UHGV virus genome: UHGV-0268673
Source of the DNA: a virus
DNA length: 18,863 bases
Direction: 5' to 3' (one strand)
Part shown: one piece after another, positions 8,676-12,766 of the stretch
Position numbering within the stretch: the first letter of the stretch is position 1
Layout of the letters: every line of letters starts with the position of its first letter
Program-made: the position numbers and the translations under genes
Notes under the pieces: model-generated
What the model saw: only the letters and a program-made list of their open reading frames with translations
What the model was told of the DNA's origin: nothing
The model's database searches: none

Positions 8676-9116
8676 CTATTCACAATTAGTGATGGCGTAT
8701 GTATCAAATATATTGCCATCACTAAATACATACCTATACTCAATCTCTCCGCCAAGGTGAATAAATGCTTTCATTTGCCTGTTGGCGCAAATGCTCGATT
8801 TTGAATAATTTCGCATTACACTCTTTAATTTATTTTCTAAGGTTACATCACCATTATAAGCTTTTGATAAATAGCTGTTGTTGTAATTAAGATGCGCTAC
8901 AACTAAAAGTTTGTTTAGTATTGCATTTATTGAAACAATAGACATATTATCATTCAATTTTATGGGAAGTGACTTTCCTGCTTCTGATGCGATTTTGTTT
9001 GCATGAGCACACATATCCTCATTTATTAAATTCTTAAAACATATGTCGTTTGCAAACGAAAAAATTGGTAGGATAAACAAAACGGTGGCTGTAATAGCGT
9101 GCATCGGCTTAATCAT
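8676..9116 (-). CDS. Secreted/periplasmic protein with N-terminal signal peptide and four Cys (146 aa), unknown function; AT-rich cargo gene
   Basis: N-terminus MIKPMHAITATVLFILPIFSFA↓ND looks like a Sec signal peptide. Strongly AT-rich codon usage compared with the flanking virion genes. Its stop abuts the stop of the convergent upstream gene (TAGCTA at 8673-8678). Confidence 0.55.
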   Translation of the reverse strand: MIKPMHAITATVLFILPIFSFANDICFKNLINEDMCAHANKIASEAGKSLPIKLNDNMSIVSINAILNKLLVVAHLNYNNSYLSKAYNGDVTLENKLKSVMRNYSKSSICANRQMKAFIHLGGEIEYRYVFSDGNIFDTYAITNCE

Positions 9117-9128
9117 TAGGTGACCTTT

Positions 9129-9578
9129 ATGTTCAAGAAGATGATCAACAGATTAATCGGTGGTAAGGAGGTTAGCAATAAAATTCAACCTCTTATCTTT
9201 AAGGATAACTTTTCAGCTTTTGAGTATGCGTGTAAGTATCTTGACACAAGCCTTTCAGCCAATAAACCAATGCCAGCCATCATCATACCTGGTCCCAGTG
9301 GGGAACAGCCAGTTTTGCTAGATTCTGGAAGACAAAGGGCAATGCTGAAGGTGTGCTCAGCTGATGGTGGATTTTTTGTTATTGCCGATTCATCTTACAG
9401 CAAAGGACCAAAGCTGAGGATTGGTGATCTTGTTGCTTGGTTGCCTGTGAGTTATGCCGAAGAATTAACGGATAAAATAGAAGATCCTCGCTCCGCTATG
9501 GTTGGCTTTATATTGGGAACCATTCATCCTGAACTAACATCTACTGGCTGGAAGGGTAAAGAAAGATTTCGCAAGTAG
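9129..9578 (+). CDS. Hypothetical cytoplasmic protein (149 aa from the ATG at 9129)
   Basis: The ORF track starts it at GTG 9120; the ATG at 9129 has an AGGTGA Shine-Dalgarno 7 nt upstream. Followed by a clear intrinsic terminator. Starts head-to-head about 12 bp from the start of the minus-strand gene. Confidence 0.5.
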   Translation: MFKKMINRLIGGKEVSNKIQPLIFKDNFSAFEYACKYLDTSLSANKPMPAIIIPGPSGEQPVLLDSGRQRAMLKVCSADGGFFVIADSSYSKGPKLRIGDLVAWLPVSYAEELTDKIEDPRSAMVGFILGTIHPELTSTGWKGKERFRK

Positions 9579-9591
9579 CGTGACATGTCAC

Positions 9592-9616
9592 AGGCCGCGA
9601 AAGCGGCCTTGTTTTT
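9592..9616 (+). terminator. Rho-independent terminator for the 9129..9578 gene
   Basis: Stem AGGCCGC / GCGGCCT with GAAA loop, followed by TGTTTTT. Confidence 0.6.
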
Positions 9617-9693
9617 AACGAATGCCACTGCCGCCCGGGCGGGAATCCACAGAACGCCCACCGCAGCGGGAGCCGTCAGCGGCAGTATCGCTG

Positions 9694-10014
9694 TTATACT
9701 ATTGAGTTAAATGATATCTTGTCCTTAATATCATTAAGTTTGCCATGTATCTTTTTTGCATAAGAATCAGCTTCCTCAATAAACTTCGACTTCTCATTAT
9801 CAGGCATATTTTTGAAGGTATGTGCACATGTATATTGAGAGTAGTAATTGTGAAACTTGTTATACAAATTATTGAGTTCTTGTAAGTCTTTTTTATACTC
9901 AGGAAGGTATATGTTTATTAGCATTTCCATCGTTTGCAACGGATTGACTTTTGATGTGTCAAATTTACTACCAGAGTGGTAACTGGCATTGTTAACAAAA
10001 TTGAGAATAGCCAT
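9694..10014 (-). CDS. Hypothetical protein (106 aa), very AT-rich; last gene of the minus-strand cargo cluster
   Basis: Uninterrupted ORF in a roughly 30% GC stretch (judged by eye). Weak ribosome-binding site, so confidence is only moderate. Same orientation and spacing as the upstream membrane-protein genes. Confidence 0.45.
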   Translation of the reverse strand: MAILNFVNNASYHSGSKFDTSKVNPLQTMEMLINIYLPEYKKDLQELNNLYNKFHNYYSQYTCAHTFKNMPDNEKSKFIEEADSYAKKIHGKLNDIKDKISFNSIV

Positions 10015-10079
10015 TTCGCTTGAAGCTATGGCTTTTTCAGTAAGTATGCAATTTGTGAATAATTGCTCACGTTTATCTC

Positions 10080-10196
10080 TTAATATTTTTCGCGCTCTAA
10101 TTTTATGCTGTTTTTGTATCCTTGCCTTGCACTTATGTAAGTAGAAACTATAGCAATAACTGCACCTATCAATGCTCCTAAGATAGTATTATCCAT
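10080..10196 (-). CDS. Small single-pass membrane peptide (38 aa: MDNTILGALIGAVIAIVSTYISARQGYKNSIKLEREKY), absent from the ORF track
   Basis: Hand translation of the minus strand. ATG at 10196 is preceded by AGGTGG with a 5-nt spacer; TAA stop at 10082-10080. Hydrophobic core GALIGAVIAIV. Sits between the 287-aa membrane-protein gene and the 106-aa gene. Confidence 0.45.
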   Translation of the reverse strand: MDNTILGALIGAVIAIVSTYISARQGYKNSIKLEREKY

Positions 10197-10221
10197 ATAA
10201 GCCACCTAAACTGCGTAAAAA

Positions 10222-11085
10222 TTATTTCCTGCCACTTCTGTAGTATATGTTGCGACCATTTTTGGTCACATTAACAACATGACCCTTTGTTTCTACTTTG
10301 TTATTTGTTGCCTTATATACTTCAAAGTCAAACCATGATATATGACTTATTTCGTCTATAGATACCATAATTTCTAGACCTTGAACTTTCTTTTTGCTTA
10401 TCCCTTTTATCGCAGCACTGCGCTTAATTTGGATTTCACCTGGGTAAGCGTTTGTAAATGTAACAGATAAATTTTCTTTGTTTCTGTACCCTGACATTAA
10501 AGGAACAAAAGATATGTGTTGGTGTGGCCCTTGATTTTCCGTTGGCTCACCAGAACCATTTATTATTCCAACGTATACTTTATTTGATGATAAAGTAATT
10601 AACATTGGTTTCTTAGGATCTGATTCGATTGCATCAAGCAATAGCAAATCTAAAGAACCCTGGGAGTACGTTTTTCGCAATACTCTAGCTTTCATTGCCT
10701 CTGATATTTTGTCATAAATATCACGTTTATAAAAAAAACCTAAAAGAAGATCTTTTAGCCAAACAAAAGATACATAACACAAAGAGAAGCAAATTGATGT
10801 GACTGACAGAAGAAGTAGCCACATGTAAATTCTATCTGTTTCTGGTTTTGACGTTACATTAAAAGTTTCCACCATATCGTGAACTAGGTGAAAATCAGGA
10901 TATTTATATTTTATAAATGCGGCAATTATTACTGAAGCAACAAGGCAATATGTACCTAATGCAGCTACTTTCATATAAAGAAGCTGGCCTTCATGTCGGT
11001 ATAAACGGAAATAATGATACTGGTTAGCGGTTATCATAATATAACCACTAACCAGAATGGGGATAATTAGAAGAGCTAACAACAC
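10222..11085 (-). CDS. Inner-membrane protein with three predicted N-terminal TM helices and a roughly 175-aa soluble C-terminal domain (287 aa); candidate exclusion/defence/conversion effector
   Basis: GTG start at 11085 overlaps the TAG of the upstream 69-aa gene (TAGTG) and has an AAGGAAA Shine-Dalgarno. Hydrophobic stretches at about residues 2-20, 38-60 and 86-110. AT-rich. I recognise no family. Confidence 0.7.
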   Translation of the reverse strand: MLLALLIIPILVSGYIMITANQYHYFRLYRHEGQLLYMKVAALGTYCLVASVIIAAFIKYKYPDFHLVHDMVETFNVTSKPETDRIYMWLLLLSVTSICFSLCYVSFVWLKDLLLGFFYKRDIYDKISEAMKARVLRKTYSQGSLDLLLLDAIESDPKKPMLITLSSNKVYVGIINGSGEPTENQGPHQHISFVPLMSGYRNKENLSVTFTNAYPGEIQIKRSAAIKGISKKKVQGLEIMVSIDEISHISWFDFEVYKATNNKVETKGHVVNVTKNGRNIYYRSGRK

Positions 11086-11294
11086 TATTTCCTTACAGTG
11101 GCAAGATCCTGTTTAACGATTGCAGCAGCGAGACGACGCATCTCCTTAACCTCAGGAAGCTCAGAAATTTGCTGTGATGAGATATACACTCCACCACGCT
11201 TGTTAACCTGCGCTGACGCCGGAACTTCTGCATTTTTTGCCTGAGGGCTGGGTGCATTATCCCTCGTTTTTGTACGAGCGAACCAAAATCCCAT
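11085..11294 (-). CDS. Small basic protein (69 aa), possible regulator; first gene of the operon driven by P1/O1
   Basis: Strong GAGGAGGAG Shine-Dalgarno 4 nt upstream of the ATG at 11294. Promoter-like TTGCAG-17 nt-TACTAT sits upstream with the palindromic operator O1 immediately after the -10. Translationally coupled to the 287-aa membrane-protein gene. Confidence 0.6.
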   Translation of the reverse strand: MGFWFARTKTRDNAPSPQAKNAEVPASAQVNKRGGVYISSQQISELPEVKEMRRLAAAIVKQDLATVRK

Positions 11295-11320
11295 ATCTCC
11301 TCCTCATGTAAACACATGGT

Positions 11321-11335
11321 TTACCTTTAAGGTAA
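11321..11335 (-). promoter_or_regulatory. Operator-like palindrome O1 (TTACCT-TTA-AGGTAA) overlapping the -10/+1 region of the promoter for the 69-aa/membrane-protein operon
   Basis: Perfect 6-bp inverted repeat with 3-bp spacer. On the minus strand the order is -35 TTGCAG, 17-nt spacer, -10 TACTAT, operator. One of three copies of the same palindrome in the island. Confidence 0.5.
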
Positions 11336-11406
11336 TAGTACGCTATTCACCCCCAGTCTGCAATCTGTACAGAATTATTTAAAGGCACGTCCCTGTGCCG
11401 CCGCCG

Positions 11407-12371: not shown

Positions 12372-12386
12372 TTACCTCAAAGGTAA
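12372..12386 (-). promoter_or_regulatory. Operator-like palindrome O2 (TTACCT-CAA-AGGTAA, extended ATTTACCT…AGGTAAAT) with associated promoter-like elements
   Basis: Minus strand shows -35 TTGCAA (plus 12409-12414), 16-17-nt spacer, -10 TTATAT/TATATT, then the operator at the putative +1. Same architecture as P1/O1. Confidence 0.5.
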
Positions 12387-12417: not shown

Positions 12418-12675
12418 TTATCTGGTTTGTTTTCGTAATTGTTCGGCACAATAGTCGAGATGTGTTTGCAGATCCTGCATAGACATCTGTGAGCTGGTGA
12501 CGTAGTTAATCAGTGCAGTCAGTTCGGCAAGTGGGCCATCGACATTAAATCCATCCTTATCGAGATCCCGGAGTAATTTCATCAAGTGCGATCCCTCCAC
12601 CAGTGACCTGACGCCTCCCGGCGTGTGAATCCTTTCGGTAAATCCGTCTTCCAGTGGATAGTGATACTGCTGCAT
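12418..12675 (-). CDS. Small protein (85 aa from the ATG at 12675) homologous to the C-terminal domain of the adjacent Bro-N anti-repressor-like protein; candidate SOS-inducible anti-repressor-type regulator
   Basis: The ORF track starts at TTG 12693; the ATG at 12675 has a GGAGA Shine-Dalgarno 7 nt upstream. Roughly 40-45% identity by eye over about 64 aa to residues ~165-228 of the 231-aa protein (e.g. LMKLLRDLDKDGFNVDGPLAELTAL vs LMNLLNQLQEDGHDVSGAAAELTTM). LexA box and O3 lie upstream. Confidence 0.65.
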   Translation of the reverse strand: MQQYHYPLEDGFTERIHTPGGVRSLVEGSHLMKLLRDLDKDGFNVDGPLAELTALINYVTSSQMSMQDLQTHLDYCAEQLRKQTR

Positions 12676-12694: not shown

Positions 12695-12714
12695 AACTGT
12701 ATATTTATACAGTA
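12695..12714. promoter_or_regulatory. LexA (SOS) box: AACTGTATATTTATACAGTA
   Basis: CTGT-N8-ACAG with an AT-rich spacer, about 18/20 match to the E. coli LexA consensus TACTGTATATATATACAGTA. Lies between the promoter region and the ribosome-binding site of the 85-aa gene and overlaps a TATAAAT -10-like element on the minus strand. Confidence 0.6.
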
Positions 12715-12751: not shown

Positions 12752-12766
12752 TTACCTGAAAGGTAA
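12752..12766. promoter_or_regulatory. Operator-like palindrome O3 (TTACCT-GAA-AGGTAA, extended ATTACCT…AGGTAAT), flanked by the self-complementary TTGCAA hexamer
   Basis: Third copy of the palindrome, in the divergent intergenic region between the 85-aa gene (minus) and the tailspike gene (plus). Could serve a promoter in either direction. An extra AGGTAAT half-site lies at 12811-12817. Confidence 0.5.

Follow-up and report, generated by a model that had tools for sequence, protein, structure and literature searches.

The lambda RexAB system, in common with comparable abortive-infection modules that have a membrane effector, is a prophage-borne two-gene unit that combines one soluble protein with one polytopic inner-membrane protein. 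Other phages carry small accessory proteins of the inner membrane as single genes, such as SieA and SieB of P22, Imm of T4 and gp15 of HK97, some of which block genome entry. In P2-like phages, the interval between gpA and gpQ was defined as a reservoir and hotspot of anti-phage systems (Rousset et al. 2022, PMC9122126), and Table S5B of that study lists an unnamed pair of genes, system #57, with 75 occurrences, no domain and the remark '2 TM in protein 1' (TM, transmembrane). The present analysis concerns a divergent allele of this pair, which belongs to another phage family and another locus. It lies in the virus genome UHGV-0268673, a stretch of 18,863 nucleotides (nt) referred to here as the window, and forms a cassette of two genes on the minus strand, encoding a basic soluble protein of 69 amino acids (aa) at 11085..11294 and an inner-membrane protein of 287 aa at 10222..11085.

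The relationship with system #57 includes both partners. The large proteins share 36% identity over their full length (E = 9e-56), and the small proteins are matched with an hhalign probability of 96.7%. In other words, the same two protein families occur in the same combination of a small protein with a membrane protein. The searched text of Rousset et al. (PMC9122126) gives no sign of system #57 among the systems tested there. The pair has been catalogued once, without a name, and the family is otherwise functionally uncharacterised.

In the window, the 69-aa gene (phrog_5739, the small cassette partner) and the 287-aa gene (phrog_3630, with a GTG start) were identified as open reading frames (ORFs) with PHROG matches. 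The TAG stop of the former overlaps the GTG start of the latter in a TAGTG motif at 11083-11087, in line with the translational coupling proposed in the original prediction for this region, and the 69-aa gene is preceded by a strong ribosome-binding site, GAGGAGGAGAT-ATG. That prediction had described four co-oriented genes. All four ORFs are real, lie on the minus strand and have the boundaries given for them, although the unit consists of two genes and one broken gene. Similarly, the AT-richness ascribed to all four applies to the 287-aa gene (34% GC) and to the 38-aa and 106-aa ORFs downstream (31-33%), in a window of 46% GC, but not to the 69-aa gene (48%). The 287-aa ORF is intact in nine of the nine E. 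coli loci checked, with a ratio of nonsynonymous to synonymous substitution rates (dN/dS) of about 0.12-0.14 in E. coli, and the 69-aa gene has a dN of 0 against two E. coli relatives; these values indicate that both cassette genes are under purifying selection. Recurrent truncation of the 287-aa protein, suggested by shorter RefSeq annotations in ECONIH2, OkiPb01676 and B1, was rejected, since direct translation returns the full ORF and only the choice of start codon differs. In several genomes (loci L006, L062 and L063), PGAP annotates downstream ATG starts for this gene, giving lengths of 753-819 base pairs (bp); such RefSeq starts drop the first membrane helix, and the full GTG-start ORF is intact there.

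A structure model of the 287-aa monomer, built with 108 sequences, reached a pLDDT of 89 and a pTM of 0.78. The model begins with helices at residues 2-20, 34-61 and 81-118, continues with two short helices and ends in a beta-barrel. Hydropathy, the model and the charge bias among the 108 homologues together assign the three long helices (10732..11082, minus strand) to the membrane, which agrees with the three N-terminal transmembrane helices and the soluble part described originally. The barrel, at approximately residues 145-265 (10291..10653, minus strand), is modelled as an Sm/LSm/Hfq-like domain. It has the N-terminal helix and the five-stranded, strongly bent antiparallel sheet of the Sm fold, and the best structural matches of the soluble domain are RNA-binding Sm, LSm and Hfq proteins. 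Across the 108 sequences, loop 1 contains on average 2.5 lysine and arginine residues (K+R) and 0.9 aspartate and glutamate residues (D+E), loop 2 contains 2.6 and 3.6, respectively, and the segment after helix 3 contains 5.1 and 2.3. Because of this positive-inside bias, the Sm-like barrel is predicted to be cytoplasmic, with the N-terminus out and the C-terminus in. The barrel has five invariant residues, Y171, S198, G199, R201 and Y214, and the membrane part has one, G44, while K169 (99%), G173 (96%) and P195 (96%) are nearly invariant; together with G14, G33 and Y37, the latter three are conserved in 96-99% of sequences. The Pfam LSM and Hfq sequence profiles match neither the window protein nor any of its 108 homologues, the WYL sequence profile does not match the soluble domain, and a fold search against viral models returned nothing significant.

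This architecture sets the cassette apart from the systems named above. RexAB shares with it the prophage-borne pairing of a soluble and a polytopic inner-membrane protein and, by analogy, might share a logic of sensor or regulator and effector. However, PADLOC scans detected no resemblance in sequence or profile, RexB crosses the membrane with four helices and lacks an Sm-like domain, and RexA has 279 aa, whereas the small partner considered here has 58-94 aa. SieA, SieB, Imm and HK97 gp15 resemble the large protein as small phage accessory proteins of the inner membrane, but they lack both a cytoplasmic Sm-like domain and an obligate small partner, and the SieB profile (PF14163) matches neither the 287-aa protein nor its 108 homologues. 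Unlike the members of the Sm/LSm/Hfq superfamily, and unlike the structurally related WYL sensor domains of CapW, BrxR and DriD, the cassette domain is fused to three membrane helices. The arrangement also recalls MscS, a protein of about 286 aa with three N-terminal membrane helices and a small cytoplasmic beta-barrel. Membership in the MscS family was supported neither by a Pfam MS_channel match nor by structural similarity to MscS chains. We know of no described immune, exclusion or toxin-antitoxin system that contains a membrane protein with a cytoplasmic Sm/Hfq-like domain.

The family is considerably larger than a simple search suggests. A word-indexed search with the 287-aa protein recovered only 33 clusters, mostly from Enterobacterales, whereas a profile search of 1.84 billion representatives yielded, at 50% identity, 2,785 clusters with E<=1e-3, of which 1,629 reached E<=1e-10; most were full length, and they came from Proteobacteria, Bacteroidota and Acidobacteria. 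The 108 sequences mentioned above constitute the diverse homologue set, and the search for genome loci used an alignment of 22 sequences. Pfam, NCBIfam and PADLOC (PADLOC-DB v2.0.0) contain no matching family for the 287-aa protein or for the 108 diverse homologues, among which PADLOC gave only two stray weak matches. Scans of all ORFs with the Pfam, PADLOC, PHROGs and NCBIfam libraries returned only PHROG families of unknown function. Because no described family matches, the original statement that the family could not be recognised holds.

The small partner accompanies the large one throughout this range. In every locus examined that a contig end does not cut short, the large gene is immediately preceded by a small ORF; this applies to loci from Enterobacterales, Pseudomonas, Asticcacaulis, Lautropia, Alcanivorax, Novosphingobium, Photobacterium, Bacteroidota and Acidobacteria and to 76 IMG/VR contigs. 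The spacing between the two genes ranges from -38 to +36 nt, and a 1-nt overlap is frequent. The small proteins share a core in which a helix comes after a short strand-turn-strand built around a conserved glycine. This core is VNKRGGVYISSQQISELPEVKEMRRLAAAIV in E. coli and VVGRGTVRIDPAEVFDSPEFK...A..LI in Pseudomonas, and homology of the small proteins is supported by pairwise E values of about 1e-11 to 1e-12. In 17 chromosomal loci, the pair is the sole shared content, with the exception of two closely related locus pairs, L017/L020 with a common integrase and the Pseudomonas loci L026/L040 with common flanking genes. On these comparisons, the conserved unit is the two-gene pair of 69 aa and 287 aa, which is mobile and uncharacterised. 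An assignment of the small protein to the AbrB/MazE antitoxins, suggested by the motif 'VVGRGTVxIDPxEV', was dropped because profile searches of PDB and Pfam gave no support. A profile of 24 small proteins produced only spurious matches in PDB and no relevant Pfam family even at E<=1, and neither search revealed an antitoxin DNA-binding fold of the AbrB/MazE, RHH, HTH or Phd type.

The window belongs to an epsilon15/phiV10-like prophage of E. coli. The sequences flanking the cassette region match the phages TL-2011b and phiv142-3 as well as 463 complete E. coli genomes, and the region itself has 99.6% identity with E. coli A0 34/86. Genes for injection proteins lie to the left of the region. 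To its right are the BRO-N antirepressor gene, an 85-aa gene, the tailspike gene and the lysis genes, and the host genes yfgI and yfgH occupy the far right end of the window. The BRO-N and 85-aa genes lie between the tailspike gene and the cassette, which contradicts the originally described adjacency of cassette and tailspike. Positions 9610-11400, from a hairpin to the operator-bearing promoter, are a cargo-exchange slot that has an equivalent position in the 463 genomes. Its conserved left border is a GC-rich hairpin at 9592..9609, terminator-like on the plus strand, at which the conserved flank starts in these genomes. The pair was found in 28 of 5,426 complete E. coli genomes, at the slot position every time, and thus occupies the slot in about 6% of the flank-bearing genomes (28/463). 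Elsewhere, the slot contains DUF4760 proteins, DUF2335, assorted hypothetical proteins or a toxin of the YafO family preceded by a small gene. In two E. coli genomes, DUF2335 takes the place of the 287-aa gene behind the 69-aa gene. DUF4760 is listed in the catalogue of the P2 hotspot as well.

Beyond E. coli, the pair occupies several kinds of variable phage loci. It lies in the same region of an epsilon15-like Providencia prophage and at the genome end of Pseudomonas phage vB_Pae_U6; in Citrobacter, Pectobacterium and Cronobacter phiES15, its place is the end of the prophage or the stretch from the integrase gene to the attachment site. The cassette-bearing Citrobacter prophage has a true SieB gene elsewhere. 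Additionally, 26 Salmonella plasmids carry the cassette. In the P2-like Salmonella phage SEN5 and Klebsiella phage ST15-OXA48phi14.1, the pair falls in the interval that runs from the replication gene gpA to the portal gene. Among the 76 IMG/VR contigs, 23 have the pair in the epsilon15-like slot, 13 have it at most 516 bp from an integrase gene and six place it in the P2 hotspot, four of these at 36-38 bp from the portal gene. Thus, the SEN5, Klebsiella and IMG/VR copies belong to the gpA-gpQ hotspot, and the window copy itself occupies a different slot.

The Klebsiella phage (locus L065, 3786-6495) encodes the cassette as gp13 and gp14, followed by a 69-aa ORF and a bSEFIR gene (PADLOC E = 7e-103); these four genes share one orientation and lie between DinI and the portal gene. 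The AC1 '2TM + 1TM + TIR' system of Rousset et al. (2022) was considered for this order of cassette, 69-aa gene and TIR-like gene and was rejected, as the AC1 2TM protein seems much shorter and different and the TIR-like gene is bSEFIR. Among the chromosomal loci, L031 has genes of a CBASS-type cyclase (SMODS) directly upstream of the pair, and integrase genes occur three times among the neighbours. In some distant chromosomal loci, the pair stands beside housekeeping genes, such as those for an aminotransferase or TonB-dependent receptors.

In the window, transcription of the cassette is expected to start under an operator. A promoter-like element (11335..11363, minus strand) with a -35 sequence TTGCAG at 11363-11358, a 17-nt spacer and a -10 sequence TACTAT at 11340-11335 was read from the sequence; it is weak against the consensus (3/6 and 4/6 positions) and remains a prediction. 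The operator O1, a perfect 15-bp palindrome (TTACCTTTAAGGTAA) at 11321..11335 with no strand of its own, covers the expected transcription start, and its first base is the last base of the TACTAT element. This confirms the palindromic operator that had been described at the promoter. The window contains three copies, at 11321-11335, 12372-12386 and 12752-12766, against 0.06 expected by chance. The copy at 12372-12386, which precedes the BRO-N gene, has the same geometry behind TTGCAA-17-TATATT (12414-12386).

In the complete phage TL-2011b (L058), the operator TTACCTNNNAGGTAA occurs 11 times, again with 0.06 expected, at positions 135, 5172, 5234, 5946, 8227, 8289, 14819, 33333, 34385, 34478 and 35597. 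The integrase gene, an early gene and the morphogenesis operon are each preceded by the operator, as is BRO-N, there by two copies. The HTH repressor gene gp10 has two copies downstream and one upstream, and the operator is also present at the cargo promoter and in the tailspike intergenic region. Such a dispersed operator in an epsilon15-like genome corresponds to a P1-like dispersed-operator regulon, of which we know no description for this phage group. Given the genome layout and the position over the transcription start, the operator is probably that of the immunity repressor or of another phage-wide repressor, and therefore the cassette is probably silent here in stable lysogens and turned on at induction or fresh infection. 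The one experimental paper on this phage group goes no further than showing that the repressor shuts off lytic genes and that the lytic cycle is favoured by the BRO-N protein (PMC9782041).

Three features, namely the strict pairing, the mobility and the residence in loci that phages use for such genes, suggest that the two genes form a hitherto undescribed module for anti-phage defence or exclusion, in which the membrane protein would be the effector and act by abortive infection or superinfection exclusion; we put the chances of this reading at about even. The exclusion or defence role originally suggested stands insofar as the pair is accessory phage cargo in anti-phage loci (P2 gpA-gpQ, integrase-proximal ends and the YafO slot); no SieB or PADLOC homology supports it. 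In the proposed mechanism, the basic 69-aa protein would act in the cytoplasm and be produced in translational coupling with the 287-aa protein, which would hold its Sm/Hfq-like barrel on the cytoplasmic face of the membrane. Because Sm folds typically form rings of six or seven, the membrane protein may oligomerise through this domain, and the oligomer would be the effector, acting by membrane perturbation or by a block to genome entry. A ligand, nucleic acid or the small partner could bind in the invariant pocket (Y171, S198-G199-Y200-R201 and Y214), and the small protein might regulate the effector or sense on its behalf. In an epsilon15-like prophage, the cassette would be switched on at infection or induction and not constitutively. 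A more specific version, tentative and rather unlikely, is that a membrane-anchored Sm-fold ring senses phage nucleic acid, a ligand or the loss of its partner and gates the helices, resulting in aborted infection or blocked entry; this multi-phylum system would be wired to the repressor in epsilon15-like phages and fire only at induction or fresh infection. If true, it would be, to our knowledge, the first immune effector built on the Sm fold.

Several observations weigh against an anti-phage or exclusion module. PADLOC gave no match for any of the four window ORFs or for the copies of SEN5, the Klebsiella phage, phiES15 and vB_Pae_U6, and full-text literature searches found no paper on the family and no experimental phenotype. 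An occurrence in defence islands of unrelated genomes, raised in the original prediction, is seen in L031 with its upstream SMODS genes, but clear defence-gene adjacency is limited to this one of 15 chromosomal loci; the enrichment signal is weak because both 'cyclase' matches among 141 neighbouring proteins lie there. In the Pseudomonas oryzihabitans group, the pair adjoins an aminotransferase gene in three loci and appears more resident-like. The window copy may be off in a stable lysogen, which would be unusual for prophage defence genes, and the steps of oligomerisation, pore formation and ligand binding, like the part given to the small protein, are inferred.

Part of the same evidence would suit a toxin-antitoxin-like addiction or stabilisation cassette, in which a putative membrane toxin and a small upstream neutraliser persist selfishly on mobile elements, with no dedicated anti-phage role. 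The order with the small gene first and overlapping stop and start codons is conserved across phyla, and a small upstream gene coupled to a larger downstream one is a type II feature. A YafO-family toxin pair fills the same slot in other prophages, and the 26 Salmonella plasmids point in the same direction. The small gene stands alone in two E. coli genomes, whereas the large gene was not found alone in any untruncated locus, and the small protein is identical among E. coli variants while the large one diverges. This explanation is nevertheless considered unlikely, as no antitoxin-type DNA-binding fold, AbrB/MazE included, was detectable in the small protein; because many toxin-antitoxin systems are anti-phage, it overlaps with the anti-phage reading and does not exclude it. 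The operator evidence, in turn, bears on the possibility that the cassette belongs to the phage's own lytic programme and is expressed once the repressor is gone, acting at the membrane, for example, in excluding competitors, timing lysis or taking over the host. The operator is placed over the predicted start just as it is at the promoter of the BRO-N antirepressor gene, and the 11 copies in TL-2011b include sites on both sides of the repressor gene and before the integrase gene and the early and morphogenesis operons. However, the presence of the cassette in only about 6% of slot-bearing prophages indicates that it is not needed for the lytic cycle. Copies in other phages sit at integrase-proximal ends and at the P2 old/tin position, typical of genes expressed in lysogens, the cassette also occurs outside prophages, and we only infer which protein binds the operator. 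A lytic role is therefore given a low probability.

The barrel itself suggests RNA-based modification of the host, in which a membrane-tethered Hfq/LSm-like ring binds or sequesters RNAs or another ligand, so that the prophage would cause lysogenic conversion without excluding phages. The best structural matches are RNA-binding proteins, the barrel has invariant aromatic and arginine residues, and some Pseudomonas members look like stable chromosomal residents. On the other hand, no member matches the Pfam Sm or Hfq profile, Sm-like folds also serve non-RNA ligands and mere oligomerisation, and the patchy, mobile distribution fits conflict systems better, which leaves this explanation distinctly improbable. 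The least credible proposal, close to negligible in our view, is an operon for O-antigen or surface conversion with a small hydrophobic peptide like Iap, which the original prediction had listed among its options. Epsilon15-like phages are known serotype converters, and in TL-2011b an O-acetyltransferase gene lies just downstream of the gene at the tailspike position. Yet neither the 287-aa protein nor its 108 homologues match a Gtr, acyltransferase-3 or Wzy profile in Pfam or NCBIfam, and the soluble domain is predicted to be a cytoplasmic Sm-like barrel with a non-enzymatic fold and not a periplasmic enzyme. Moreover, the Iap-like peptide would come from the 38-aa ORF, which is the N-terminal piece of a 167-aa gene broken by a frameshift, and the cassette occurs in hosts and phages with unrelated receptors.

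The anti-phage or exclusion reading concerns two large families that have no functional annotation and travel together over Proteobacteria, Bacteroidota and Acidobacteria. The pair occurs in three classes of variable phage locus, and one of them, P2 gpA-gpQ, has repeatedly yielded real defence systems when tested. If active, the cassette would represent a new effector architecture in an easily cloned system of about 1.1 kb. It also offers a handle on the regulation of cargo by dispersed operators in epsilon15-like phages. If inactive against phages, it would still deserve a name as a two-gene membrane module of wide distribution and unknown role.

Downstream of the cassette, the 38-aa transmembrane peptide and the 106-aa protein that had been read as separate genes are halves of one 167-aa gene (phrog_36918; 9694..10196, minus strand), which encodes an N-terminal membrane anchor and a helical domain. 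Both ORFs match this family of 167 aa, the 38-aa ORF at profile positions 1-37 and the 106-aa ORF at positions 63-167. The former runs on the minus strand from 10196 to 10080 (41 aa if started at 10205), and the latter from 10014 to 9694 with no ribosome-binding site. Alignment with E. coli E275a revealed a 1-nt deletion that shortens an A6 run to A5 (the plus-strand T-run at 10086-10090), so that the frameshift site (10086..10090, minus strand) has a homopolymer of five where relatives have six. Putting the missing base back restores a 167-aa protein with an N-terminal membrane anchor, and six other E. coli genomes, namely E275a and five more, have the 504-bp gene in intact form. Because E. 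coli A0 34/86 shares the frameshift allele despite neighbouring genes that differ from those of the window, a real allele is more likely than a read error. The 167-aa gene is absent from all cassette loci outside E. coli and has no relative in the phage collection. By this distribution, it is an optional third cargo, unrelated to the conserved unit; in the window it is inactivated. Most cassette-bearing E. coli have at this position a gene for a 53-aa 'transmembrane anchored protein' instead, which is intact in TL-2011b (gp43). The window retains a C-terminal remnant of this backbone gene at 9615..9689 (minus strand), and six relatives have a RefSeq pseudogene at the equivalent position, which indicates that its 5' end is displaced by the 167-aa gene.

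To the right of the slot, a site resembling a LexA box (TACTGTATAAATATACAGTT) lies at 12695-12714 on the minus strand, with two mismatches to the consensus and none expected by chance. It is located between the operator copy at 12752-12766 and the 85-aa gene (12418-12675, minus strand), upstream of the latter. The C-terminal third of the neighbouring BRO-N antirepressor has a homologue in the 85-aa product (phrog_450), whose gene looks like an SOS-controlled small antirepressor of the Tum type, judging from these sequence features.

To the left, two genes of unassigned function sit between the gene for a 1129-aa injection protein and the cassette. One (8676-9116, minus strand; 32.7% GC) encodes a 146-aa protein of phrog_8772 with an N-terminal sequence resembling a signal peptide, and the other (9120-9578, plus strand) encodes a 152-aa protein of phrog_9944; neither protein has a match in Pfam or PADLOC. 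The 4-nt loop of the adjacent hairpin at 9592-9609 is inverted, with GCCGC-TTTC-GCGGC in the window and GCCGC-GAAA-GCGGC in E275a and A0 34/86, and the stem is the same. A0 34/86 has other genes in place of those for the 146-aa and 152-aa proteins. Its related prophage (L001, 1-3711) is truncated by an IS66-family element inside a structural gene; if the repressor arm has been lost, operator-controlled cargo would be constitutively expressed in this probiotic strain.

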